Shown piece by piece: positions 19,708-37,118 of a stretch of DNA of 64,000 nt; within the stretch, counting starts at the first letter, position 1; every line of letters begins with the position of its first letter. A program made the position numbers and the translations under genes. The notes beneath the pieces are model-generated. The model saw only the letters and a list, made by a program, of their open reading frames with translations. It searched no databases and had not been told where the DNA came from. The DNA comes from an uncultured Candidatus Saccharibacteria bacterium (lineage in GTDB: Bacteria; Patescibacteriota; Minisyncoccia; UBA6257; 1-14-0-10-40-38). The stretch spans positions 232,977-296,976 of the forward strand of contig CAZIWN010000001.1 in the NCBI GenBank assembly GCA_964543265.1, given 5' to 3'.

Positions 19708-19872
19708 TTAAGCCTTGGATCCGTAATTTCCGCACTGAGCGCAAGCCCTATGAGAAAAAACTGGTCCCTTGCATTTTTCGCAAACTAAAATATTGGTCTT
19801 CTTAAGAGCCAAATGAGATCTTCTTCTTCCAACTTTCGATTTTGAATGATGTTTTACTGGTACACCTCCCAT
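19708..19872 (-). CDS. rpmF: 50S ribosomal protein L32 (not in the ORF track; 54 aa)
   Basis: Hand translation gives MGGVPVKHHSKSKVGRRRSHLALKKTNILVCEKCKGPVFSHRACAQCGNYGSKA. This is the L32 basic N-terminus plus C4 zinc ribbon. Confidence 0.8.
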   Translation of the reverse strand: MGGVPVKHHSKSKVGRRRSHLALKKTNILVCEKCKGPVFSHRACAQCGNYGSKA

Positions 19873-19975: not shown

Positions 19976-20004
19976 TTGACAATCTAATATTTTTCTGCTA
20001 GCAT
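19976..20004 (+). promoter_or_regulatory. sigma70-like promoter TTGACA-N17-TAGCAT for the GC-rich ORF
   Basis: TTGACA at 19976-19981 and TAGCAT at 19999-20004. SD aaggggaaaaga lies before the ATG at 20057. Confidence 0.45.
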
Positions 20005-20056
20005 ATAGCACAGTACCAGTTAAGAAGGGGAAAACCAAAGGCATAAGGGGAAAAGA

Positions 20057-20491
20057 ATGGACAGCGCAACCGCACCTCTTTCGACGACCCGTTTCGATCG
20101 GACCGGCTTCCAGTTCGACGTGAATTCCGAGATGCAAGAAAGCGTCTTCGACCTCGTCGAAGGCGCCCTGAATCGTGACGGCGAAGTGCGGGCAGAAGGA
20201 ATGCCCGACGAGATCGCCACGATCTCGGAAGCGCACATCTTCGCGGGCGAAGAAGGTCGAGTTCCGGCCACGCTCGAAGAAGCGATGAGCTTCGTCGAGC
20301 GCAACACGACAATCGCAGGTCACTGCGTGGTCGTAGCAACCGGAACCCAGACCTTCCACGGCGGAGAGTTTTTCGTCTTCGCGATTCGCAAGCACGAACG
20401 CGCAGACAAGACCGGCTTCGTCGTGACGACGATCCCGCTCACGAGCACGTGGGCGCGCCACTACAAGGTGGCGCACCTCTCAGCCACCTGA
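20057..20491 (+). CDS. hypothetical acidic 144-aa protein in a GC-rich (~60% GC) islet
   Basis: Only this frame and strand has a promoter, SD and downstream terminator. The three overlapping minus-strand ORFs are high-GC artefacts. Confidence 0.5.
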   Translation: MDSATAPLSTTRFDRTGFQFDVNSEMQESVFDLVEGALNRDGEVRAEGMPDEIATISEAHIFAGEEGRVPATLEEAMSFVERNTTIAGHCVVVATGTQTFHGGEFFVFAIRKHERADKTGFVVTTIPLTSTWARHYKVAHLSAT

Positions 20492-20504
20492 CCTGACCCC
20501 CCAA

Positions 20505-20566
20505 GCCCCGACACTAGAGCCTCTCGCGCACCGCGCGGAGCTCTAGCTGTCGGGGCTTCTTTTTTT
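20505..20566 (+). terminator. long GC-rich compound hairpin plus T-run after the GC-islet ORF
   Basis: gccccgacactagagcctctcgcgcaccgcgcggagctctagctgtcggggc then ttcttttttt. Confidence 0.7.
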
Positions 20567-20655: not shown

Positions 20656-20718
20656 GACAAGGCGTTTTTGCGAAGCTGTATCAAGCAATGCGGATACAGC
20701 GAGTAAAAAGAACGCAGT
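20656..20718 (+). repeat. intergenic structured repeat, copy 4 (short subfamily), immediately upstream of dnaE
   Basis: gacAAGGCGTTTTTGCGAAGCTGTATCAAGCAATGCGGATACAGCGAGTAAAAAGAACGCAGTA. Its internal ATG is in frame with dnaE and creates a spurious N-terminal extension in the ORF track. Confidence 0.75.
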
Positions 20719-20747
20719 ATTTGTTAGTAAAGATTAATATTAAACCA

Positions 20748-23700
20748 ATGAAGTTTACTCATTTACACGTTCACTCTCATTATTCGCTACTAGATGGCCT
20801 TCCAAAAATCCCCGACCTCGTAAAAAGAGTTAAGGAATTAGGAATGGATTCCGTCGCTTTAACCGATCACGGTAATCTTTATGGCGCAATAGAATTTTAT
20901 AAAGAGGCAAAAAAACAAGGCATTAAACCAATTTTAGGAGTTGAAGCTTACATTTCTCCAAAAGGGATGGAAGACAAAGATAGTAATGATGAAAAATATT
21001 TTCATCTAACTCTTTTAGTAAAAGATAATAAGGGTTGGCAAAATTTAATTAAACTCGTAACCGAAGCTCATCTTAAGGGTTTTTACTATAAACCAAGGAT
21101 GGATAAAGAACTTTTGAGAAAATATTCCGAAGGACTTATTGCCCTATCTGGTTGTATTACGGGAGAAGTTTCTAGAAATATCTTATCCGGAAACTACGAA
21201 AAAGCTGTAGCGATGGCAAAAGAATATGAATCAATTTTTGGAAAGGGTAATTATTATTTAGAAGTTGGTAATCATCCAGGATTTAAAGACACGGTCAAAG
21301 CCAAGGAAGGGTTAATAAAAATTTCTAAGGAAACAGGAATTCCCCTAGTCGCCACTCAAGATCTTCACTACTTAAGAAAAGAAGATTCAGAATATCACGA
21401 CATCTTACTAGCCGTTCAAACCGGAAATAAATTAACCGATCCAGGTCGTCTTACATTAAAAGACGATGATTTTTCTATGACTAGCCCCGAAGAAATGGCT
21501 GAACGTTTTAAAGATATCCCAGAAGCCGTTTCAAATGCTTATGAAATATCTCAAATGTGCAACGTTGAGATTGAGCTTGGAAAAATAAAACTTCCAAAAT
21601 TTCAAGTTCCAACAGGAGAATCTGGAAATGAGTATTTGAGAAAATTAATTAATGAAAGACTTTCTGGAAAATACGAACAAAAAACTGAAGAAGTTTCTAA
21701 AAGAATAGAGATGGAATTGGGTGTTATAGAAAAAATGGGATTTGCTGATTATTTCTTAATCGTTCAGGACTTTATTAATTGGGCCAAAGATCATGGCATA
21801 GTTGTTGGCCCCGGAAGAGGATCTGCCGCAGGCAGCATCGTCTCTTACATACTAGGTATAACAGATATAGATCCAATTAAATACGATCTTCTTTTCGAAA
21901 GATTTTTAAACCCAGACAGAATTCAAATGCCTGATATAGACGTAGACATCACCGACATCCGTCGCGATGAAGTCTTGGGATATCTTCGAGAAAAATATGG
22001 AGAAGATAAGGTTGCTAACATTATCACTTTCGGAACCATGGCTGCTCGTGCCTCTATTAGAGATGTTGGCAGAACCATGGATCTTTCTTATTCATTTTGT
22101 GACCAAATCGCAAAAATGATTCCGGCAAATTTAGATTTAAAAGAAGCTCTAGAGCAAGTTGATGATTTAAATAAAATCTATAAGGCAGATAAAAATGCCA
22201 AAAAATTAATCGATGTTGCTCTTCATTTAGAAGGAGTTGCTCGACACGCCTCCGTTCACGCCTGCGGAACGGTTATTTCCAATGAAACACTTACCAACTA
22301 TCTCCCCCTTCAAAAAGCCCCACAAGATCCAAACATCACAATTACACAATTTGAAATGCATACCGTTGAAGATCTCGGTCTTCTAAAAATGGATCTTTTG
22401 GGTTTAAAAAATCTAACCATCATTGAAAACACAATTAATCTGGTTGAAGAAAGATTTGGCACTAAAATAAATATTTCTAAAATTCCAATAGATGACAAAA
22501 AAGCCTTTGCCCTTCTTCAAGCTGGAATCACTTGCGGCATTTTCCAATTTGAATCCGCTGGAATGACTCGCTACCTTAAAGAACTTAAACCAAGCGAAAT
22601 AGAAGATTTAATCGCTATGGTGGCCCTATATCGCCCAGGACCAATGGAACTTATTCCAGATTACATTGCCAGAAAACATAAAAAGAAACAGGTCGTCTAT
22701 CTCCATCCAAAACTAGAATCTGTTCTTAAAAATACCTATGGAATTATGATCTACCAAGAACAGCTCATGATGGGCGCTCGTGTTTTGGCTGGCTTCACGC
22801 TTGCCGAAGCAGACGTCTTAAGAAAAGCTGTCGGTAAAAAAATTAAAGAGCTTCTCCAAAAACAAAAAGATAAGCTTATTGATGGCTGTCAAAAAAATGG
22901 AGTCCCTAAAGATGTGGCAGAAAAATTCTGGGCACTAGTTGAGCCTTTCGATAGATACGGATTCAACAGAAGCCACGCCGCTGCTTACGCCATGATCGCC
23001 TATCGCACAGCCTACCTTAAAGCCAACTACCCAATTGAGTTTATGAACTCTTTGTTAAATTCTGATGCCGGAGACACTGAACGCGCCGCTTATTTGATTC
23101 AAGAGTGCAAAAAAATGAATCTTGAAGTTTTGCCACCAGACATCAATAAAAGCTCTGCTAACTTTTTTCCAGAATCAGAAAAAACAATCCGTTTTGGATT
23201 AACTGCGATTAAAAACGTTGGAGCTAATATCATAGAAGCCATAATTAATGAAAGAAGAAAGGGCGGAGAATTTAAAAACCTTTCAGACCTCATTTCTCGC
23301 GTTAAGCATAAAGATTTAAATAAAAAATCCCTAGAATCTCTGGTTAAATGTGGAGCCCTAGATTCTTTAGGTACAGAAAGAAACCAAATAATTTTAAATA
23401 TAGAAGAAATATTAAAATTTATCAGCAACATTAGAAAGTCTGAATCAGAAAATCAGATGGGTCTTTTTGGTGCCCCCAAAGCATCTAGTAATGCAATTAA
23501 ATTAAAGGAAGTTCCACCAGCCACAACAGCTGAAAAACTATTATGGGAAAAAGAATTATTGGGTCTTTATGTCACCGACCACCCATTAAGCTATCTAAAA
23601 CCAAAAATAGACTTAATGAAGGCTAGGCCAATTAATGAATGTATTACTAATGGAAATGAATCCGGGTATTTCAGAATTGCAGGACTTCTTTCCGGAATTA

Positions 23701-23909
23701 AAAAAATCACCACCAAGAGTGGCAAGCCAATGCTTTTCGCAAAACTAGAAGATTTTACTAGCTCTCTAGAATTAGTTGTTTTCCCAACTATGCTAGAAAA
23801 AAAGCCATTAGTCTGGAAAGAAAATGCAGTCTTGGCAGTTGTGGGTAAAATGGATTTTGCCAGAGGCGAACCGAAGATCATCTGCGAAGACGCCACAGAA
23901 ATTGTTTAA
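20748..23909 (+). CDS. dnaE: DNA polymerase III alpha subunit
   Basis: PHP domain start MKFTHLHVHSHYSLLDG. Pol III alpha core and OB-fold C-terminus. True start taken at the second Met (20748). Confidence 0.9.
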   Translation: MKFTHLHVHSHYSLLDGLPKIPDLVKRVKELGMDSVALTDHGNLYGAIEFYKEAKKQGIKPILGVEAYISPKGMEDKDSNDEKYFHLTLLVKDNKGWQNLIKLVTEAHLKGFYYKPRMDKELLRKYSEGLIALSGCITGEVSRNILSGNYEKAVAMAKEYESIFGKGNYYLEVGNHPGFKDTVKAKEGLIKISKETGIPLVATQDLHYLRKEDSEYHDILLAVQTGNKLTDPGRLTLKDDDFSMTSPEEMAERFKDIPEAVSNAYEISQMCNVEIELGKIKLPKFQVPTGESGNEYLRKLINERLSGKYEQKTEEVSKRIEMELGVIEKMGFADYFLIVQDFINWAKDHGIVVGPGRGSAAGSIVSYILGITDIDPIKYDLLFERFLNPDRIQMPDIDVDITDIRRDEVLGYLREKYGEDKVANIITFGTMAARASIRDVGRTMDLSYSFCDQIAKMIPANLDLKEALEQVDDLNKIYKADKNAKKLIDVALHLEGVARHASVHACGTVISNETLTNYLPLQKAPQDPNITITQFEMHTVEDLGLLKMDLLGLKNLTIIENTINLVEERFGTKINISKIPIDDKKAFALLQAGITCGIFQFESAGMTRYLKELKPSEIEDLIAMVALYRPGPMELIPDYIARKHKKKQVVYLHPKLESVLKNTYGIMIYQEQLMMGARVLAGFTLAEADVLRKAVGKKIKELLQKQKDKLIDGCQKNGVPKDVAEKFWALVEPFDRYGFNRSHAAAYAMIAYRTAYLKANYPIEFMNSLLNSDAGDTERAAYLIQECKKMNLEVLPPDINKSSANFFPESEKTIRFGLTAIKNVGANIIEAIINERRKGGEFKNLSDLISRVKHKDLNKKSLESLVKCGALDSLGTERNQIILNIEEILKFISNIRKSESENQMGLFGAPKASSNAIKLKEVPPATTAEKLLWEKELLGLYVTDHPLSYLKPKIDLMKARPINECITNGNESGYFRIAGLLSGIKKITTKSGKPMLFAKLEDFTSSLELVVFPTMLEKKPLVWKENAVLAVVGKMDFARGEPKIICEDATEIV

Positions 23910-24289: not shown

Positions 24290-26035
24290 ATGGAAAAATC
24301 ACAAAAAATAGAAGGAATTCGACACTCTCTAGCTCATTTATTAGCCGCTTCTGTCTTAAAAAAATATAAGACCGCCAAGCTCGGCATCGGCCCAGCAATT
24401 GAAAATGGTTTTTATTATGATATCCAATTTAAAAATCCGATCACCGAAACCGATCTGGCAGAATTTGAAAAAGAAATTAAAAACTTAATTTCTCAAAAAT
24501 TAGAATTTAAAGGAGAAAAAATAACCCCCCTCAAAGCCAAAAAGCTTTTTGCTGGCCAGAAATTTAAACTCGACCTAATAAAAGAATTCGCCAAAGACAA
24601 AAAAGATTTAACCATCTACAAAACCGGAGAAGTCTTCACCGATCTCTGCAAAGGCGGACACATTAAGAATACTTCCGAAATTAATCCAGAAGCTTTTAAA
24701 CTAACCCACACAGCCGGAGCTTATTGGAGAGGAGATGAAAAAAATCCCCAACTTACCAGAATTTATGGATTAGCTTTCGAAAACAAAGAAGAATTAGAAA
24801 ATTATATTAAGCAACTAGAAGAAGCAAAGAAGAGAGATCATAAAGTTTTAGGACCTCAATTAGATCTTTTCACTTTTTCCGAGCTTGTTGGTCCTGGTCT
24901 TCCTCTTTGGACTCCAAAAGGAACTATTCTTAGAGACGAATTAGATAATTTCATCTGGCAATTAAGAAAAGAACGCGGTTATGAAAGAGTTGATATTCCC
25001 CATATCACGAAAATAACGCTTTATGAAAAAAGTGGTCATTGGGATAAATACAAAGATGATCTCTTTAAAATTAAAACTCGCGAAGATCACATGTATGCTA
25101 TGAAGCCCATGAACTGCCCGCACCATGCGCAGATTTATGCCCGCAAACAATGGAGCTACAGAGATCTCCCTCAAAGATATTCTTCTACTACAAAAGTTTA
25201 TAGAGACGAACAGTCTGGTGAGCTTGCCGGCCTTTCAAGGGTTCTTTCTATAACTCAAGATGATGCTCACGTTTTTTGCAGAAGCTCTCAAGTTAAAAAA
25301 GAAATGAGTAGCGTCTGGGATATTATAGAAACTTTCTATGGAACTTTTGGATTTAAACTAACTCCAAGACTTTCTCTTAGAGATCCAAAAAACAAAGAGA
25401 AATATTTAGGAACTCCAAAGATGTGGGAAGAAACCGAAAATGAATTAAGAGTATTAGTTAAAGAAAAAGGATCGAGTGCCGAAGAAGCTTTAGGAGAAGC
25501 CGCGTTTTATGGTCCTAAAATAGACTTTATGGCTAAAGATTCGTTGGGCAGAAGCTGGCAGGTTGCCACAATTCAACTAGACGTTAATCAACCAGAAAGA
25601 TTTAATCTTTCCTGTATCAATGAAGACGGCAAAGAAGAAAGAATCGCCATGATCCACGCCGCCATTATGGGTTCTATTGAGAGATTTTTATCAGTTTTAA
25701 TCGAACACTATGCTGGAGCCTTCCCTCTTTGGCTCTCCCCTGTTCAGGTTAGAATTTTGCCAGTTGGTGAAAAATTTTTAAATTACGCCAACGAAATAAA
25801 ATCAGAGTTAATTAAAAATAATATCCGCGTAGATTTGCCAGAGCCAAATGAAACACTCGGCAAAAGAATTCGTGCTGGAGAAATGGAAAAAATCCCAATG
25901 CTTTTAATCATCGGCGAAAAAGAAGTTACAGCCAAAAATGTAACCATGCGCCGTTACTCCGATAAATCGCAAAAAGAAATGACTATTAGCGAACTAGTTA
26001 GTACCATCCAAAAAGAAGTTAAAGAAAAGAAATAA
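24290..26035 (+). CDS. thrS: threonyl-tRNA synthetase lacking the N-terminal TGS domain
   Basis: Editing-domain motif RHSLAHLLA. Class II catalytic core. C-terminal anticodon-binding domain. ATG at 24290 preferred over the TTG at 24245. Confidence 0.85.
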   Translation: MEKSQKIEGIRHSLAHLLAASVLKKYKTAKLGIGPAIENGFYYDIQFKNPITETDLAEFEKEIKNLISQKLEFKGEKITPLKAKKLFAGQKFKLDLIKEFAKDKKDLTIYKTGEVFTDLCKGGHIKNTSEINPEAFKLTHTAGAYWRGDEKNPQLTRIYGLAFENKEELENYIKQLEEAKKRDHKVLGPQLDLFTFSELVGPGLPLWTPKGTILRDELDNFIWQLRKERGYERVDIPHITKITLYEKSGHWDKYKDDLFKIKTREDHMYAMKPMNCPHHAQIYARKQWSYRDLPQRYSSTTKVYRDEQSGELAGLSRVLSITQDDAHVFCRSSQVKKEMSSVWDIIETFYGTFGFKLTPRLSLRDPKNKEKYLGTPKMWEETENELRVLVKEKGSSAEEALGEAAFYGPKIDFMAKDSLGRSWQVATIQLDVNQPERFNLSCINEDGKEERIAMIHAAIMGSIERFLSVLIEHYAGAFPLWLSPVQVRILPVGEKFLNYANEIKSELIKNNIRVDLPEPNETLGKRIRAGEMEKIPMLLIIGEKEVTAKNVTMRRYSDKSQKEMTISELVSTIQKEVKEKK

Positions 26036-26068: not shown

Positions 26069-27526
26069 TTAAATTTTTAACAACTCTTCTCTAAAAATCT
26101 TCTGCAATATCCCCGGATTCCCCTTTCCTTTTAAAGCACCCATCGCACGCCCAACCAAAAACTGCAAAGCATTTTCTTTTCCTTTTTTGAAGTCTTCTAT
26201 AGCTCTCGGGTTTTCTGCTAATATTTTATGCGCCAAAAGCTTTAATTCGTTTTCATCAGAAACCTGTTCCAATCCTAGCGAGCTTAAAAGATTATGTGGA
26301 TCTTCTCCCGTTTCAAACATTTTTTTCAAAATATCTTTAGCCGATCTCGAAGAAACTTTATTATGAGAAATCATTTCTATCAGATCAGAAAAGTTTTCTG
26401 GATTTATTTTAATATCGCCGAATCCGAATTTCGAAGCCGACATCAAACCCATTAAATCAGATGTTAAATAGTTATAAATCAGCTGAATTTCTTTTTTAGT
26501 ATTAATATCGTCCTCTGCTTCAATTTCAGACACAGATTCTTCAAAAAAACTCGCCAATGCCAAATCTTGGATCAGAATATTCGCCTGCTCTTCATTTAAA
26601 CCATATTCCTTTTGGAATCTCAATCTTTTAATACCTGGTAATTCTGGAATACTAGCCTTAATTTCTTTTAAACTTATTTTAGATAAATCGAGTGGCGGAA
26701 TATCTGGATCTGGAAAATATCTATAATCATGGGCAGATTCTTTTGATCTTTGCGAAAAAGTCGTTCCAGTATTTGCATCCCATCCACGAGTCTCCTGAAC
26801 AACCTTACCCCCCGATTCTAAAACTCCCTCTTGTCTTTTAAGTTCATATTCAATCGCACCCCTAACAGATGAAAAAGAAGCAATGTTTTTTACCTCAACC
26901 TTTGTTCCAAATTTAAATTCGCCATTTACAATCGTCCCTAAACTCACGTTAGCCTCAACCCTCATTAAACCACGCTCCATATCCGCATCAGATGCCCCCA
27001 AGTATTTCAAAGTTAATTGTAGCTCTTTTGCAAATTCCGATGCCTGTTCGGCACTTTTAATATCTGGTTCGGTTACCAATTCCATTAAAGGCACTCCGGC
27101 TCTATTATAGTCAACAAAAGACACCTCATTGCCATTCTTATCCTTCCCGTGCTCCAAGCTAGCCGTATCCTCTTCTAAATGAATTCTAGTGAGTTTTACA
27201 CCCCTTAAAACCCCTCCAAATACTAAAGGAAGGTCGTACTGTGATATCTGATAAGCCTTGGGTATATCTGGATAAAAATAATTTTTCCTATCAAATTTTG
27301 AAAATTGAGGAATATCTCCCTGAAGCGCCATTCCTATTTTTAAAACCAATTCCACCGCTTTTTTATTTACCACCGGCAAAGTCCCTGGGTGAGCTAAACA
27401 AATTGGACAAGTATTTTTATTCGGCTCAATATTAAAAGTCTCATTAAGACACGAGCAAAACATTTTCGTTTTTGTTTTTAATTCAGCGTGTATTTCAAGA
27501 CCGATGGTTGGAATGTATTTAGACAT
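26069..27526 (-). CDS. gatB: Asp/Glu-tRNA(Asn/Gln) amidotransferase subunit B
   Basis: MSKYIPTIGLEIHAELKTKTKMFCSC. C-terminal GatB/YqeY domain. Start trimmed to MSKYIP. Confidence 0.9.
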   Translation of the reverse strand: MSKYIPTIGLEIHAELKTKTKMFCSCLNETFNIEPNKNTCPICLAHPGTLPVVNKKAVELVLKIGMALQGDIPQFSKFDRKNYFYPDIPKAYQISQYDLPLVFGGVLRGVKLTRIHLEEDTASLEHGKDKNGNEVSFVDYNRAGVPLMELVTEPDIKSAEQASEFAKELQLTLKYLGASDADMERGLMRVEANVSLGTIVNGEFKFGTKVEVKNIASFSSVRGAIEYELKRQEGVLESGGKVVQETRGWDANTGTTFSQRSKESAHDYRYFPDPDIPPLDLSKISLKEIKASIPELPGIKRLRFQKEYGLNEEQANILIQDLALASFFEESVSEIEAEDDINTKKEIQLIYNYLTSDLMGLMSASKFGFGDIKINPENFSDLIEMISHNKVSSRSAKDILKKMFETGEDPHNLLSSLGLEQVSDENELKLLAHKILAENPRAIEDFKKGKENALQFLVGRAMGALKGKGNPGILQKIFREELLKI

Positions 27527-27628
27527 AAAATCGTTATGTAGAAGTATAGAAAAAAAACAAACCCTAAACAAGTAAAATAAAAAACAAACCCGGTCGCCTG
27601 ATTTCTCAAGCTACCGGGTTTTAGATCA

Positions 27629-27654
27629 GATCAGCGGATTCTCACCCGCTGATC
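27629..27654. repeat. GC-rich stem-loop with 9-bp perfect stem (gatcagcgg ... ccgctgatc)
   Basis: Read directly. Sits at the left edge of the GC-rich islet. Confidence 0.7.
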
Positions 27655-27924
27655 ACGGACAGATGCATGCATCTGTCCGCCACCGAAAGAAGACCTGCCC
27701 TGACGAATCGTCGTCGTCCGATCGGGACGAACAGAGCACCTGAGACACCGACCAGCCACGAGCCGTCGGCTACAGGCCGGACAGTTGTCCCCTCGAGGGT
27801 TCACGAACGCCACCGGCGTCAGAAACGCCTCGAACGGCACCCGCCTCTCTGGACGCTTCTTCTCGTCGCACGGAATCGCCCCGCCACCAGCAAGCGACGC
27901 CGCAAGCATTCCCACAAGCATCAT
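27631..27924 (-). CDS. small (97 aa) protein with hydrophobic N-terminus and CxxC..CxxC zinc-ribbon, in a ~62% GC islet
   Basis: Strong SD GGGAGGAG 8 nt before the ATG. CPACS...CLRC pair. The opposite-strand ORFs are considered artefacts. Confidence 0.4.
   Translation of the reverse strand: MMLVGMLAASLAGGGAIPCDEKKRPERRVPFEAFLTPVAFVNPRGDNCPACSRRLVAGRCLRCSVRPDRTTTIRQGRSSFGGGQMHASVRDQRVRIR
27657..27678. repeat. 22-bp perfect palindrome ggacagatgcatgcatctgtcc
   Basis: Read directly. Centre is TGCATGCA. Confidence 0.8.
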
Positions 27925-28064
27925 CTGCCTTCTCCTCCCGTTAAAGAAAAGTGCTAAAAAACATTATAAAACTTTTAAAGATATAAATCAAAATTAAATT
28001 TGCCTTAGAAAAAATATAGGCATACCATTATTTCAGCACCACAAAACCAAAAAAGGAGAATGTT

Positions 28065-28865
28065 ATGGCAAAAATCTTCATTGCCAACATTCCCGTTTGG
28101 CATGGAGGATTGGTTAAGGTTCTTAGGGGGCTTGGAATTCACGACAAACTAATTGTGATTAGTGCAGAAATAGCAAATGGCCTTGCCGGAGAAGAGATTG
28201 ACGAAAGAAGACTTCCTGATTCAGAAGCTGTTCACTGCGCCAAGCAACACGTCTGGTCCAGGGTGGAACTACTTACTCTTAAAAATATAGAAAAAATAAG
28301 AGATGACAAAGATATTGCCGTAAGCGCCACAGACGACGAAGTTACAAGGCGAGTTATAGCAAAAGTGTTTCCCAAGGCAAGGATCGCTTGGCTTAACACC
28401 TTCTCAAAAGCAGAAAGTGTAGGCAGAGACGCTGTGGTAATAGTCGAAGAAGCATCCGTTCAAGTAAGAGAAATTCGACTAATGATGCTTGCCGAAGCTC
28501 AAGCCAAGCTTTCCCCGCTCAAAGACCTTCTCTCTGGCGCAGTTCTATCCTCAGAAGATGGTCGATTCTTGGGCAAAGCTGGCATCAGACACCTACCCAC
28601 CGAATTCGAGCCATTTCTTGACGACAATCGCCTCTCCATCGCCCATCCGATCGCAATACTCGTTGCCCTGTCTGCCAGAAACGGATTGTCTATTATGGGA
28701 TCGACAATTTACTCCACCGATTTTCCTTGCACCACTTGCGCTAAGATCATAGGTGTTTCCGGAATAAAGACTGTTTTTGTAAAATACGGAAACAATACAA
28801 GAAGCCTGCAAATACTCCGCGCCTTTGGAGTAAAAGTAATAAGAATTGTGTCCAAAAAAGACTAG
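28065..28865 (+). CDS. cytidine/dCMP-deaminase-fold protein with atypical active site (HPI instead of HAE; PCTTC retained)
   Basis: C-terminus AHPIAILVAL...FPCTTCAKIIGVSGIKTVFV aligns to the dCMP deaminase HAE...PCxxC...GIK..VY pattern. About 45% GC. Confidence 0.45.
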   Translation: MAKIFIANIPVWHGGLVKVLRGLGIHDKLIVISAEIANGLAGEEIDERRLPDSEAVHCAKQHVWSRVELLTLKNIEKIRDDKDIAVSATDDEVTRRVIAKVFPKARIAWLNTFSKAESVGRDAVVIVEEASVQVREIRLMMLAEAQAKLSPLKDLLSGAVLSSEDGRFLGKAGIRHLPTEFEPFLDDNRLSIAHPIAILVALSARNGLSIMGSTIYSTDFPCTTCAKIIGVSGIKTVFVKYGNNTRSLQILRAFGVKVIRIVSKKD

Positions 28866-28905
28866 TGCCAAGTTACCGCATGCGGTAACTTGGCACTGTT
28901 TTTTT
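28864..28905 (+). terminator. 34-bp perfect palindrome plus T-run (terminator of 28065..28865)
   Basis: agtgccaagttaccgcatgcggtaacttggcact then gttttttt. Confidence 0.75.
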
Positions 28906-29158
28906 ACTGCTGACGAAAGTATCCGGCTGGCCTGGTGTGAGAGCCATCTGGTGGACGCCTTGGTGGAGTATATCCACAGCCATTACACATCCGTAGACGA
29001 GCATCAATATTTGTAGATTTGCATTTTGGACAACAATCAACAGAGATAGCAGTCGATACAGCCGGCTTCTTCTCCGAAGACTTACATCCAGTAATACAAC
29101 AACCATTTCGGTTGAGTTCCCGAAACGCTCTGCAAATTTTACAAAGTCCTGTAGCCAT
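28904..29158 (-). CDS. Cys-rich 84-aa zinc-ribbon-like protein
   Basis: 14 Cys (CKIC, CC..GC, CCPKC, CNGCG). Strong SD aaggggagg before the ATG. Preferred over the overlapping 113-aa frame. Confidence 0.4.
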   Translation of the reverse strand: MATGLCKICRAFRELNRNGCCITGCKSSEKKPAVSTAISVDCCPKCKSTNIDARLRMCNGCGYTPPRRPPDGSHTRPAGYFRQQ

Positions 29159-29297
29159 CTGACCTCCCCTTGTCTAAGAAAGAATTCCTTGTTCTGCAGT
29201 TTAGGATAAAACAAAACACCAAACTCTTACAAGCCCTCAATCATTACAAAAATATTATAAACATTGATTATCATACTTAATAATGTAGAATCGTAAT

Positions 29298-29972
29298 ATG
29301 GCACTATCAGACAAGAGAATATTGGAAGCAAAAGAAAAAGGAGATATTTTAATTCATCCTTTTGATAAAAAAAACTTAGCCACTTCAAGCTACGACGTTA
29401 CTTTAGGCGAATTCTATTTTCGCGAACAAATTCCAGACAAATATCACAATAAAATCTATAATATTTGGGACAAAAACCACATCGACAGAGTTTGGGGCGT
29501 AAATTTTCACAAAGCTATAACCGCCAAAGAAGCTTTTAAAAATTTTAATTTTGAATTTAACAACTTAAAACCAACCGAAAAAGTAATTCTTTTAGAACCA
29601 GGGGAAACAATTTTAGCTCACACCAACGAATTTATTGGTGGTCTAAACCACATCACCACCATGATGAAAGCTCGTTCTTCTCTTGGAAGAAGTTTTATAG
29701 AAGTTTGTAAATGTGCCGGCTGGGGCGACGTTGGCTACGTTAATCGTTGGACCATGGAAATTACTAACAATTCAAAAAGTTATATTATTCCACTCGTAGT
29801 TGGCAGAAGAATAGCTCAAATCATTTTCTTTGAAACTGGTGAAATTTTAGGCAGCGACTACACAAAAACAGGAAAATATAACACGACAACAGATTTAGAA
29901 AAATTAAAAAAAGAATGGAATCCATTTATGATGCTTCCAAGATTAGATAAGGATCGAGATATTAAAAAATAA
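29298..29972 (+). CDS. dcd: dCTP deaminase (Dcd/dUTPase superfamily)
   Basis: N-terminus MALSDKRIL..SSYDVTLG and core SSLGRSF..GWGDVG..WTMEITN align to E. coli Dcd. Confidence 0.75.
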   Translation: MALSDKRILEAKEKGDILIHPFDKKNLATSSYDVTLGEFYFREQIPDKYHNKIYNIWDKNHIDRVWGVNFHKAITAKEAFKNFNFEFNNLKPTEKVILLEPGETILAHTNEFIGGLNHITTMMKARSSLGRSFIEVCKCAGWGDVGYVNRWTMEITNNSKSYIIPLVVGRRIAQIIFFETGEILGSDYTKTGKYNTTTDLEKLKKEWNPFMMLPRLDKDRDIKK

Positions 29973-29990: not shown

Positions 29991-30818
29991 ATGAAAATTT
30001 ATAACGATGTTCTAAAAAAAATCTTAGAAAACGGCGTTGATAGAAAAGGTAGAAATGCTATGACTCGCGCACTTTTTGCAATTCAAATGCGTTTTAACTT
30101 AGAAGATGGATTTCCAGCCGTAACCACTAAACAATTAGCGTTTAATGGAGTAAAAAGCGAATTACTTTGGTTTTTAGAAGGTAGTAATAGCGACGAAAGA
30201 TTAAAAGAGATTTTAGGAAAAGATCGCACAATTTGGACCGATAATGCTAATGCTCCATATTGGATAGATAAAGCAAAATTTCCAGGAGATCTCGGAAGAA
30301 TTTATGGAGTTCAATGGAGGCACTGGAAAAGAACAGACGGAAAAGAAGTAGATCAAATAGCTCATCTTATTAATAAACTAAAAACAGACCCAAACGATCG
30401 TCGCCTGGTAGTTACCTCCTGGAATCCAGGAGAATTAGATCAAATGGCCCTCCCTCCTTGTCATATGATTTTTCAATTCTTTGCCGCTAATGGAAAACTT
30501 TCTTTACACATGACTCAACGCAGTTGCGATATGTTTTTGGGGGTTCCGTTTAATATCGCCTCTTATTCGCTGCTCTTAGCCATGATTGCGCAAGTGGTTA
30601 ACATGACTCCACACGAGTTTGTAATCACCCTCAATGATGCTCATATTTATCACGAACATTTTGATGCAGTAAAAGAACAATTATCCAGAGAACCAAAAAA
30701 ACTGCCAAAACTTTGGCTAAATCCAGAAATTAAAGATATAAATAAATTTACAATGGATGATATTAAGCTTGTAGACTATGAACACTATCCAACTATCAAA
30801 GCCAAAATGATAGTTTAA
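29991..30818 (+). CDS. thyA: thymidylate synthase
   Basis: QMRFNLEDGFPAVTTK, catalytic PPCH, RSCDMFLGVPFNIASY. Asn at the dUMP-specificity position. Confidence 0.9.
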   Translation: MKIYNDVLKKILENGVDRKGRNAMTRALFAIQMRFNLEDGFPAVTTKQLAFNGVKSELLWFLEGSNSDERLKEILGKDRTIWTDNANAPYWIDKAKFPGDLGRIYGVQWRHWKRTDGKEVDQIAHLINKLKTDPNDRRLVVTSWNPGELDQMALPPCHMIFQFFAANGKLSLHMTQRSCDMFLGVPFNIASYSLLLAMIAQVVNMTPHEFVITLNDAHIYHEHFDAVKEQLSREPKKLPKLWLNPEIKDINKFTMDDIKLVDYEHYPTIKAKMIV

Positions 30819-34824: not shown

Positions 34825-35427
34825 TTATTTCCGTCTAATGAGAGCATAACGGCGGTCGTTCCATTCATCATCCAACCACAAACATCCCCAGAACCACCTG
34901 TAACCGCTCCAAAATAAATGACGAATACATATACCTCCAGCATCATCACGATATCTTGTTCCCCAGAAAAAGATCCATCCGATCCTCTTCCAATCATCGG
35001 GAATGAGCTCTGGGTAGGTAATTAAGTAATCAAGAACATTGGCGTTCAAAACCGGCTCTTTCTCAAGCTCTTTAAGGAGCTTATGGCCTTTAATAACCCT
35101 TCCATTTTGTTGGTTCGGCGAAAGATGCAACACTACAGCCGACAGGTTCCAGTTCAGAACTCCATCTCTTATATGATTTTCCACCTTAAGTCCATCTGGG
35201 ACTAACGGCTTGGCGTCGCAATCGATCTCCCGATTCCGATTATCCGACCCCAAATCAAGTAAATGCCGAAATGCATCTCGATCGACACCATCAACATTTC
35301 CATCTAGTAAATCTGACAATAAACCAGATTCAAGTAGATTCTGTAGGCGTTCTGGAGAAATACGTTTTTCCAGAACCATCTCTAAGATCTTCAAGCCTTG
35401 TGGCAGGGTTGCCAATTTCATTGACAA
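34825..35427 (-). CDS. hypothetical 200-aa protein with Trp-rich C-terminus in a ~45% GC islet
   Basis: ORF with SD AAGGA. Composition atypical for this genome. No family recognised. Confidence 0.3.
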   Translation of the reverse strand: MSMKLATLPQGLKILEMVLEKRISPERLQNLLESGLLSDLLDGNVDGVDRDAFRHLLDLGSDNRNREIDCDAKPLVPDGLKVENHIRDGVLNWNLSAVVLHLSPNQQNGRVIKGHKLLKELEKEPVLNANVLDYLITYPELIPDDWKRIGWIFFWGTRYRDDAGGICIRHLFWSGYRWFWGCLWLDDEWNDRRYALIRRK

Positions 35428-35822: not shown

Positions 35823-37118
35823 CTACCTAATAACAGCCTTCAAATCCTTAACCGTCATCTCCTCAACCTGCTTGTGAATTACGTTTATTTCTTCGTTAGT
35901 AAGCGTTCTTTCATGAGATCGATAAACAACTCTAAAGGTATAACTTTTTTTATTTTCTCCAAATTTTTTTGCGTTTTCAAATTGATCAATCAATTTAACT
36001 TCTTCTGCCAAATCCCCTGCGCAGTGTCTCACAATTTCATAAAATCCATTTAAAGATGTGGATTTATCTACAATAAAAGAAATGTCGCGGATAATTTCTG
36101 GATATTTGCTAACCTCCTCATAAACACTATTAATATTCTTAAATTGCTTTGTGATTCTTTCATCTTCAGACCACAAAACTCTAATATCTGGGATTTTCAT
36201 TTTCATAATTGCCAATCTTTCTAATCCGAATCCGAAAGCCCAGCCATTATAAATTTCTGGATCTAATCCAAAATTCCTTAAAACGTTATTATGCACGATT
36301 CCCGCACCCACAACCTCAAGCCAATCATTACCCCATTTAATTTCAATCTGAGTTGATGGATTTGTGAAAGGAAAGGCGTCGTCCAAAAACCTATATTCAA
36401 TAGAATTTCCAAAAACAGACTTCATAATATTCGCCAAAACATCCTGCAACATTTTCAGCGTTACTATTTTTTCGCTTTTTTTAGATACAAACATTCCATC
36501 TATCTGATGAAATACAGGAAAATGTTTTCTATCAATCTCATCTTTTCTATAAACTTTTCCGTAACACAATTCTCCCACCCAGCCATTTTTATTTAATCTT
36601 TCAAGAACCTCTTTGTCGCTTAAATAATAAAGCCACATAGAAGTCGTGTGAGTTCTAAGGATTCTTTCAGAATCTAAAAAATAAGTATCGGTTGGCCTTC
36701 TTCCTGGATGTTCTTGTGGAAAATTAAATAAATCAAAAGCATTTTTCACGGTTACAGTTTCCGGAATTTTAACCACATCAAAACCCTTAAAATCTTTAAT
36801 TTTTAAAATCTCATCCAAAATAAACTTAACTGGCGAATTTTCTTTGCGAGCTAAATCTGGCATTGCCATTAATCGCTTCAAGCGCACAGCATCAAAATCG
36901 TTTCCTTTTAAAATCCCAGCAACAACTGGCTTTTCTTTTAAATCTTCATACTCAATAAAGCTCCCTCCTGTTGGAGCTTTTATTTTCAAATCTTTTCTTA
37001 AAAATTGAGACTCTGGTGCGGTCTGCTTCTTTAAAAAAATAGGTGTTTTCTTTTTTAAGGTTGTCTTTTTATAAGTCTTCTTGGCTTTCAAATTTCCTTT
37101 CATCTTCATTTTATTCAT
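35823..37118 (-). CDS. pheS: phenylalanyl-tRNA synthetase alpha subunit with Lys-rich N-terminal extension
   Basis: Class II motif 3 GWAFGFGLERLAIMK. N-terminus MNKMKMKGNLKAKKTYKKTTLKKK. Confidence 0.85.
   Translation of the reverse strand: MNKMKMKGNLKAKKTYKKTTLKKKTPIFLKKQTAPESQFLRKDLKIKAPTGGSFIEYEDLKEKPVVAGILKGNDFDAVRLKRLMAMPDLARKENSPVKFILDEILKIKDFKGFDVVKIPETVTVKNAFDLFNFPQEHPGRRPTDTYFLDSERILRTHTTSMWLYYLSDKEVLERLNKNGWVGELCYGKVYRKDEIDRKHFPVFHQIDGMFVSKKSEKIVTLKMLQDVLANIMKSVFGNSIEYRFLDDAFPFTNPSTQIEIKWGNDWLEVVGAGIVHNNVLRNFGLDPEIYNGWAFGFGLERLAIMKMKIPDIRVLWSEDERITKQFKNINSVYEEVSKYPEIIRDISFIVDKSTSLNGFYEIVRHCAGDLAEEVKLIDQFENAKKFGENKKSYTFRVVYRSHERTLTNEEINVIHKQVEEMTVKDLKAVIR

Follow-up and report, generated by a model that had tools for sequence, protein, structure and literature searches.

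A two-domain deaminase-fold protein lacking the catalytic glutamate, encoded upstream of dcd and thyA in a genome of the candidate phyla radiation

Main finding

The stretch of DNA described here (64,000 nucleotides; hereafter the window) belongs to contig CAZIWN010000001.1 of an uncultured Candidatus Saccharibacteria bacterium (assembly GCA_964543265.1) and carries, upstream of genes for dCTP deaminase (dcd) and thymidylate synthase (thyA), a gene for a deaminase-fold protein in which the catalytic Glu is replaced. The protein probably derives from a two-domain dCMP deaminase of the candidate phyla radiation (CPR), is catalytically dead, and was kept for a non-catalytic role after a dCTP deaminase took over the supply of dUMP. 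Judged from its sequence features, it very likely descended from an active two-domain dCMP deaminase and does not deaminate cytosine nucleotides; that its present role is a non-catalytic one in binding, regulation or scaffolding, tied to deoxypyrimidine metabolism, is a more tentative proposal. The loss of hydrolytic cytosine deamination is strongly inferred, because both the essential Glu and the sugar-contacting Asn are gone. The gene and the main features of its deaminase domain are as follows (aa, amino acids).

28065-28865, + strand: pseudo-deaminase gene, two-domain product of 266 aa (list of open reading frames; the stop codon lies within the coordinates)
28476-28862, + strand: C-terminal CMP/dCMP-deaminase-fold domain, aa 138-266 (Pfam, phmmer against PDB, Foldseek, order of secondary-structure elements)
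28572-28652, + strand: remodelled former active-site loop GKAGIRHLPTEFEPFLDDNRLSIAHPI, aa 170-196, with Ile174 in place of the Asn of G(Y/W)N and an 11-residue deletion ahead of His194
28644-28652, + strand: His194-Pro195-Ile196, where His-Ala-Glu is expected (direct reading)
28725-28739, + strand: Pro221-Cys222-Thr-Thr-Cys225, the zinc-binding PCxxC motif (direct reading)

Deaminase domain and loss of the catalytic glutamate

The C-terminal domain matches PF00383 in Pfam with 28.2 bits against a gathering cut-off of 25 (E 1.9e-6, aa 138-239). A phmmer search of PDB returned the bi-DCD of PBCV-1 (7fh4, E 2.6e-6) and the dCMP deaminases of T4 (E 3.2e-6) and S-TIM5 (E 4.5e-5). With an AlphaFold2 (AF2) model, Foldseek placed the human, S-TIM5, T4 and PBCV-1 dCMP deaminases at the top (E 3.5e-9 to 1.3e-8, probability 1.00). 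The topology predicted in the model is a1-b1-b2-a2-b3-a3-b4-a4-b5, an order of strands and helices that belongs to the helix-4 division of the superfamily in the published classification (PMC3239186). Canonical dCMP deaminases (DCTD; T4 Cd, S-TIM5, S. mutans, human; ComEB clade) are thus the best matches to this domain in both sequence and structure, and share with it the helix-4-division topology, the His and PCxxC zinc site and the SGIK-x-V motif. An earlier interpretation made from the DNA letters without database searches (the sequence-only reading) had assigned a deaminase fold, and this assignment holds: the match to Pfam above threshold, the PDB search and Foldseek all point to dCMP deaminases and not to an unrelated family, and the zinc-ligand residues are present. 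The same reading limited the deaminase to the C-terminal 90 aa; the domain extends over about 130 aa (138-266), and the N-terminal domain had been missed.

His194, Cys222 and Cys225 are the predicted zinc ligands and are invariant in 153/153 aligned sequences (149 relatives, counted as 50%-identity cluster representatives, and the 4 members of the clade described below). The residue aligned with the catalytic Glu is Ile196 in each of three methods, namely HMMER pairwise alignment, MAFFT with 72 active relatives, and hhalign; together with the His-Pro-Ile read directly, this bears out the earlier statement that the proton-shuttle Glu is Ile. An alternative alignment that would restore HxE was looked for: no [H/C]-x-E tripeptide occurs anywhere in the protein or in its three orthologues, and the motif is therefore not restorable. 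Among the features of the deaminase superfamily, the fold and the three zinc-ligand positions are retained and the Glu of HxE is absent. The Asn at the end of strand 2 that marks dCMP deaminases and ComEB (NxxP or G(Y/W)N(A/G)) is replaced by Ile174-Arg175; the alignment of the Ile174 region to the GWNG of S-TIM5 was made via the family profile. Past helix 1, Leu152 stands at the Cys position, where the active two-domain relatives have Asp. With regard to the dCMP deaminase/ComEB features (PMC3239186), the second zinc site is absent and the insert is truncated by 11 residues relative to the protein's own family. The N-A two residues past the HxE position is also absent (H-P-I-A-I-L). T214-x-x-x-T218 is present in the window protein and not in every orthologue, and Tyr241 is present in the window protein only. 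In this class of enzymes the catalytic Glu acts as proton shuttle and is essential (the E400A mutant of CDADC1 has no activity); the substrate sugar is touched by the Asn of G-Y-N-A, a motif that marks the DCTD allosteric site (PMC12088426).

A parallel is the N-terminal pseudo-domain of vertebrate CDADC1 (HAG for HAE), which is DCTD-like, has lost the Glu, keeps the His/Cys/Cys zinc site and contributes to architecture and not to catalysis (PMC12088426). In CDADC1 the same chain also contains an active deaminase domain, whereas the window protein has no deaminase domain other than the dead one, which is joined to a nucleotidyltransferase-like domain. The Glu was lost independently in the two cases, and the relatedness of their sequences does not go beyond the superfamily.

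Active two-domain relatives

An HMMER search with a profile of the window protein and its three orthologues gave 255 cluster representatives at E<=1e-10; with few exceptions these are 270-310 aa long and co-linear across both domains. Full-length HMMER matches to the relatives have E values from 6e-29 to 1e-13 at 25-29% identity. Named relatives are annotated as 'deaminase' or 'dCMP deaminase' and come from Patescibacteria and Saccharibacteria. HxE is present in 149/149 relatives (HAE in 116), and the Asn of G(Y/W)N(A/G) in 146/149. The window protein resembles this unnamed family in length and in its co-linear two-domain architecture, and shares P10, V11, H13, G15, R48, F113, P178, D187, R189, H194 and PCxxC.

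The neighbourhoods of six active loci were compared. An HldC/RfaE-II-like gene (PF01467) lies directly upstream of the deaminase gene in 6/6, often with overlapping stop and start. These partner proteins are 48-76% identical to each other, with HxGH and TTSTSAKLR intact; they lie outside the window, at L004:4437-4988, L005:4435-5004, L013:5410-5955, L014:5392-5994 and L015:5432-6001. In Actinomadura WP_121436526 (469 aa), a bona fide PF01467 domain is fused ahead of the two-domain deaminase. thyA is present in 5/6 active loci, DHFR or dUTPase in most of them, and DHFR, dUTPase, tmk, thyX and HIT in varying subsets. dUTPase occurs in 3/6 and a full-length dcd in 0/6. In one Saccharibacteria locus the active cluster sits within secE-nusG-rplKA...rplJL, and secE-nusG-rplK is also beside the window gene; this position, and the thyA found nearby in most loci, are further points of likeness.

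The clade without glutamate

Close homologues of the window protein are three only (53-56% identity) among 5.8 billion clustered proteins. With the window protein they make up the only four Glu-less members of the family, all from Paceibacterota, and read HPI, HPT, HPA and HPV at the motif. A scan of GTDB genomes returned the Lake Baikal metagenome-assembled genome (MAG) already in the set and nothing else, and a scan of JGI metagenomes with clade-specific peptides found no further members. Besides the Glu, and in contrast to the active relatives, the clade lacks the Asn (Ile instead), 11 insert residues ahead of the zinc His, Asp152, Trp154, Arg155, Tyr16 and the Leu-Arg-Trp at 114-116 (part of the family's LRWD). 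The clade is monophyletic, and its very long stem branch, at 0.222 (median 0.009), exceeds every other internal branch in the tree of the family.

The four genes share one slot, in the order gatB / (small ORF A) / gene / small ORF B / dcd / (thyA) / rplK-nusG-secE-gyrB (ORF, open reading frame). dcd (218-224 aa) stands beside the pseudo-copy in 4/4 genomes and thyA in 3/4. The upstream HldC-like gene of the active relatives is absent from all four pseudo-loci and from the whole window, and dcd rather than dUTPase is nearby. Searches with hidden Markov models (HMMs) and phmmer found no dUTPase, DHFR, Tmk, NadD, HIT, HD or second deaminase gene in the window.

The missing second deaminase bears on whether the protein could be the non-catalytic partner of an active deaminase paralogue elsewhere in the genome, in a hetero-oligomer of the Tad2/Tad3 type. 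Such partnership is the classic fate of Glu-less, zinc-keeping deaminase folds: Tad3 heterodimerises with Tad2 (PMC3239186). In addition, dCMP deaminases are obligate oligomers with inter-subunit sites (PMC12088426). However, the family HMM finds no second member in the window, no paralogue is adjacent in the four loci, and the active relatives are single-copy in each locus seen, so that this explanation is regarded as unlikely. Tad3/ADAT3, the inactive subunit of the eukaryotic tRNA A34 deaminase, is like the window protein in lacking the Glu of HxE, in keeping the zinc ligands and in being a non-catalytic partner (PMC3239186); a PDB entry of this type, 7nz7_B, bears the name 'probable inactive ... 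protein 3'. It differs in belonging to the TadA/Tad2 clade, in its tRNA substrate and in having a known active partner, none being found for the window protein in the window.

Selection and conservation

Rates were obtained as NG86 values of dN and dS (nonsynonymous and synonymous substitutions per site) and of their ratio, omega. Among all four genomes dS is about 1-2.5, that is, synonymous sites are saturated. The pseudo-deaminase gene has dN of 0.28-0.42 and omega of 0.17-0.27, against dN of 0.02-0.07 and omega of about 0.03 for GatB, ThyA, L11, NusG and GyrB in the three closely related loci. Protein identity is 53-63% for the pseudo-deaminase, against 91-98% for its neighbours among the three closest genomes, and its amino-acid change is about tenfold faster than theirs. 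The four ORFs are intact and without frameshifts (266-272 aa), with 106 invariant positions. Much constraint has been lost, yet the gene is far from neutral and is under purifying selection. Recent horizontal transfer as the cause of the divergence was rejected, with dS of about 1 or more for all gene pairs and flanks under very strong constraint; an identity of 53-63% in every pair requires no gene replacement, because relaxed constraint explains it.

These values also speak to the proposal that the gene is a functionless relic heading for loss, with selection relaxed once dcd had made it redundant. A relic of this kind would fit the lost catalytic residues, the tenfold rate relative to the neighbours, a linker with 29% identity and many freely drifting sites, the rarity of the protein (four sequences among 5.8 billion) and the stop codon in the adjacent small ORF B of one genome. 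It is nevertheless improbable: at dS >1, four independent lineages keep the ORF intact with the invariant residues, long blocks among them, omega is not near 1, and a strong Shine-Dalgarno sequence and a dedicated terminator are retained.

Mean pairwise identity among the four orthologues is 61% in each domain, 29% in the linker and 81% in the remodelled loop (aa 170-196). The most conserved stretch of the protein is thus the former active-site loop, GIRHLPTEFEPFL..RLSIxHP, with R175, H176, E180, E182, D187 and R189 as invariant charged residues. The protein may have retained a zinc-stabilised fold whose pocket is still important, be it structurally (possibly through a closed four-ligand zinc site, compare the CDADC1 N-domain, in which Glu157 closes the site) or as the place where a new partner or ligand binds.

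A deaminase of altered chemistry had been among the options of the sequence-only reading. The protein would then still be an enzyme, using the zinc site and a relocated general acid/base (Glu182, or Glu180/His176 in the GIRHLPTEFEPFL loop) on an altered substrate or by altered chemistry. The strict retention of the zinc ligands and the high conservation of a loop rich in invariant charged residues agree with this, and pseudo-enzymes with migrated catalytic residues are known generally (PMC10211241). It is quite improbable all the same, since Glu196, the sugar-positioning Asn of G(Y/W)N, Arg155, Trp154, Asp152, Arg115-Trp116 and 11 insert residues are all gone together, position 196 is unconstrained (I, T, A or V), and dN is about tenfold above that of the neighbouring enzymes. 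E180 and H176 are not compensatory novelties, because the active family already has them.

N-terminal domain and linker

The part of the protein ahead of the deaminase domain comprises the following features.

28065-28400, + strand: N-terminal domain, aa 1-112, with a degenerate cytidylyltransferase-like Rossmannoid fold of the HIGH superfamily (predicted fold)
28101-28112, + strand: His13-Gly14-Gly15-Leu16, degenerate counterpart of HxGH (H-x-G-Y in the active relatives; family alignment)
28401-28475, + strand: variable linker, aa 113-137, in which the family F-L-R-W-D is reduced to F-S-K-A-E (orthologue alignment)

Residues 1-112 have no match in Pfam, NCBIfam or PHROG. The assignment as cytidylyltransferase-like, of the HldC/RfaE-II kind, is based on the fold of a confident AF2 model from a 57-sequence alignment, with a predicted local distance difference test (pLDDT) score of 87.6. 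An invariant loop past strand 1, P-V-W-H13-G-G-L16, occupies the HxGH position of HIGH-type enzymes; P10, V11, H13 and G15 are conserved family-wide, and Tyr16 has become Leu in the four-member clade. Proof of cytidylyltransferase identity at the level of sequence was sought with hhalign, in which the family HxGY and the HxGH of the HldC-like partners fell in register, at a weak and non-significant E of 0.074. When the N-domain alignment was used in a word-indexed search, the matches were two fragments and one family member only. Compared with the HIGH nucleotidyltransferases, the Rossmannoid fold is present and the complete HxGH plus ISSTxxR-type motif is not. The domain ends at about residue 112 without a TTSTS-like motif, whereas the partner proteins have VHxGH and TTSTSAKLR. 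It differs from HldC, RfaE domain II and glycerol-3-phosphate cytidylyltransferase in having Leu at the second His of HxGH (Tyr in the active relatives), in lacking the ISSTxxR-type motif and the last third of the fold, and in showing no significant sequence similarity to them. On the predicted fold, it is at best a binding module of the nucleotidyltransferase type, not a competent member of that family. In the linker, L114, R115 and W116 are lost.

Base composition and the question of a phage origin

The gene had been called compositionally foreign, and possibly phage-derived nucleotide-metabolism cargo. Its stop-to-stop frame (28020-28862) has a GC content of 0.444 and a GC content at third codon positions (GC3) of 0.41, the annotated gene having 0.45. 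The 42 ORFs of at least 200 aa in the window have GC of 0.350 +/- 0.033 and GC3 of 0.279 +/- 0.045, and the gene frame ranks highest among them in GC and second-highest in GC3. The anomaly is therefore real. The gene is not a recent acquisition of the genome of the window, because the elevation is common to all four orthologues (GC 0.42-0.49 against 0.36-0.40 for their genomes, with GC3 also raised, 4/4). The active relatives show no consistent elevation of GC.

A phage or defence origin, either as nucleotide-metabolism cargo or as an anti-phage dCTP-depleting deaminase, is extremely improbable. It could draw on the GC content above that of the genome and on local matches to NCBIfam NF041025 (29.7 bits), PADLOC dCTPase (32.6 bits) and a PHROG dCMP deaminase (E 7e-13). 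However, these library matches span only about 35-60 residues around PCxxC: NF041025 covers aa 203-238 only, at a cut-off of 400 bits, and PADLOC dCTPase aa 204-238 only. The full-length match to a kinase-like N-domain and active deaminase that characterizes the anti-phage dCTP deaminases of both libraries is lacking, as is the catalytic Glu that a depleting deaminase requires. No full-length relative was found by tblastn in 50,697 phage genomes, where the C-terminal domain alone matched ordinary phage dCMP deaminases at 30-36% identity. The IMG/VR scan gave no match, so that neither the N-domain nor the full length occurs in a phage or IMG/VR sequence. Apart from the generic matches in the PCxxC region, the phage tblastn, IMG/VR, PADLOC and PHROGs searches thus gave nothing. 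The chromosomal slot is fixed in four genomes, no integrase or tRNA lies near the gene, and the nearest relatives are chromosomal two-domain deaminases of Patescibacteria located in dTMP-synthesis clusters, all of which contradicts the idea of phage cargo.

Two other compositional outliers were seen in the window. A GC-rich islet at about 20000-20550 (55-68% GC), between rpmF (19708-19872, - strand) and dnaE (20688-23909, + strand), holds overlapping ORFs of 144 aa (+) and 169 aa (-) and has no Pfam or Rfam match. An ORF of 200 aa at 34825-35427 (- strand), between gyrB and an ORF of 431 aa (35823-37118, - strand), has GC of 0.44 and GC3 of 0.43 and no Pfam match.

Organization of the locus

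The window has about 35% GC, and its thrS, gatB, thyA, rplK, nusG, secE and gyrB are typical CPR gene content. The product of the pseudo-deaminase gene is 100% identical to one NCBI database protein, and its nearest named relative is annotated 'Candidatus Paceibacterota/Pacebacteria' (Lake Baikal MAG G188). The signals and neighbouring genes are listed below.

27631-27924, - strand: small ORF A, 97 aa, divergent, with a hydrophobic N-terminus and a CxxC...CxxC ribbon (found in 3/4 loci, 36-40% identity)
28053-28059, + strand: Shine-Dalgarno sequence AAGGAGA, with the ATG 6 nucleotides further on (direct reading)
28863-28898, both strands: bidirectional intrinsic terminator with a 16-bp stem and T-runs flanking on both strands (terminator scan and sequence)
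28904-29158, - strand: small ORF B, 84 aa, Cys-rich and zinc-ribbon-like, convergent to the pseudo-deaminase gene (tblastn, same place in 4/4 loci)
29298-29972, + strand: dcd, dCTP deaminase-like gene (Pfam DCD, E 3.4e-30)
29991-30818, + strand: thyA, thymidylate synthase gene (Pfam Thymidylat_synt, E 8.4e-102)

The ORF list, the Shine-Dalgarno sequence and the three intact orthologues confirm that 28065-28865 is a real gene. The terminator has a perfect 16-bp stem and overlaps the stop codon, so that the gene forms its own transcription unit and is transcriptionally insulated from dcd-thyA. It had been placed directly upstream of dcd-thyA. The adjacency is correct; coupling is not supported, given a spacer of 432 bp that contains the terminator and the conserved antisense 84-aa ORF, and a separate promoter-like site of dcd at 29264-29291 (promoter scan). 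dcd and thyA are 18 bp apart and make up a complete dC-to-dT route, as had been suggested, and the pseudo-deaminase is not needed for it.

The dcd product matches NCBIfam dCTP_deam with 82.4 bits, under the cut-off of 92.8. Relative to the dcd genes of the other three loci (L001:7236-7892, L007:7225-7881, L008:7234-7890), the window dcd is on the opposite strand and 49-53% identical; those three are 89-93% identical to each other, and no close phage relative of the window dcd was found. The comparison of sequences points to an inversion and a xenologous replacement in the lineage of the window. In the genome with protein P0003, thyA is missing between dcd and rplK (L008:7897-8259, L009:4340-4732) and its slot is filled by an unannotated ORF of 120-130 aa with no Pfam match; the pseudo-deaminase gene and dcd are kept. 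ThrRS (window thrS at 24290-26035, and L001, L007 and L008) is a mosaic with identities of 59-92% that do not track the flanking genes; between the window and L001, ThrRS is 67% and the adjacent GatB 98% identical. This suggests allele replacement of ThrRS by recombination, as judged from the sequence identities.

Small ORF A keeps a strong Shine-Dalgarno sequence and ATG in L001 and L008 and is missing in L007. It has 63% GC and lies in an islet (27600-27930) of 59-65% GC inside a 35% GC genome; it shows no codon-position periodicity, because its GC contents at the three codon positions are 0.64, 0.59 and 0.64. Small ORF B is 34-55% identical across the four loci; its product contains several CxxC pairs and, towards the C-terminus, a conserved PAGY(F/Y)R. 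It has no family match in Pfam, NCBIfam, PHROGs or PADLOC, and carries an in-frame stop in L007. In L001, L007 and L008 it follows dcd in the same orientation, which suggests a possible operon of dcd and small ORF B there. Structured RNA in the GC-rich flanks was considered and rejected: Rfam searches of the whole window at the gathering threshold, and of 27400-29400 at E<=1, gave no match near the gene and only tRNAs in other places.

Interpretation

A catalytically dead, retained descendant of a dCMP deaminase would have arisen as follows. The ancestor would have combined a degenerate cytidylyltransferase-like N-domain with a zinc dCMP-deaminase domain (HAE, PCxxC and the Asn of G(Y/W)N), encoded after an HldC/RfaE-II-like gene and mostly near thyA, DHFR or dUTPase. 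In a single small lineage of freshwater Paceibacterota, an adjacent dcd would have been able to supply dUMP. With a switch of the dUMP supply to this dCTP deaminase, the old dCMP deaminase may have been left behind and the adjacent partner gene lost. The protein keeps the three predicted zinc ligands and the His-Gly loop of the N-domain, along with a new invariant charged loop at the former active site. The present role might be that of a zinc-stabilised regulator, sensor or scaffold, like the N-terminal pseudo-domain of CDADC1 or Tad3/ADAT3.

The sequence-only reading had named an inactive pseudo-enzyme or regulator, and with the zinc ligands kept and the Glu replaced this is the best description. 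Several points weigh against it. The inactivity is deduced from residues and alignments, and an active paralogue or an HldC-like partner could lie outside the window. The AF2 model of the full protein has a pLDDT of 67, with the loop 176-192 below 50. The clade has four members only, so that site-wise conservation is coarse, and the correlation with the pathway switch is only suggestive, because it reflects a single evolutionary event. A 'nucleotide sensor' lacks direct support, because the residues that canonically contact the nucleotide have been lost; the pocket may have another ligand, or none at all. Finally, the raised GC in 4/4 genomes is unaccounted for, relaxed selection in an AT-rich genome predicting the opposite.

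A bolder and fairly unlikely extension is that the GIRHLPTEFEPFL...RLSIxHP loop (with clade-specific Arg175 and Glu182) and the His-Gly loop serve a new function, either as a ligand sensor or regulator of the dcd-thyA route or in new zinc-dependent chemistry. If it acts as a sensor or regulator, the conserved Cys-rich mini-proteins on both sides are possibly involved. If this extension is true, the protein would be a neofunctionalised bacterial pseudo-dCMP-deaminase and not a passive remnant; to our knowledge, none is known.

Implications

Deaminase folds that keep the zinc site without the Glu are known from eukaryotes (Tad3/ADAT3, the CDADC1 N-domain), and no description of a free-standing bacterial pseudo-dCMP-deaminase was found. 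The family offers a clean contrast between about 250 active relatives in similar neighbourhoods and one small clade without catalysis where dcd is present. The combination of an HldC-like gene with a two-domain deaminase appears to be a widespread and seemingly undescribed module of Patescibacteria, usually in a dTMP-synthesis neighbourhood, and may be a more interesting target than the pseudo-deaminase itself. The pseudo-deaminase would in turn be a tractable example of a pathway switch that leaves a pseudo-enzyme behind in the highly reduced genomes of the CPR, in which each retained gene is expected to matter.

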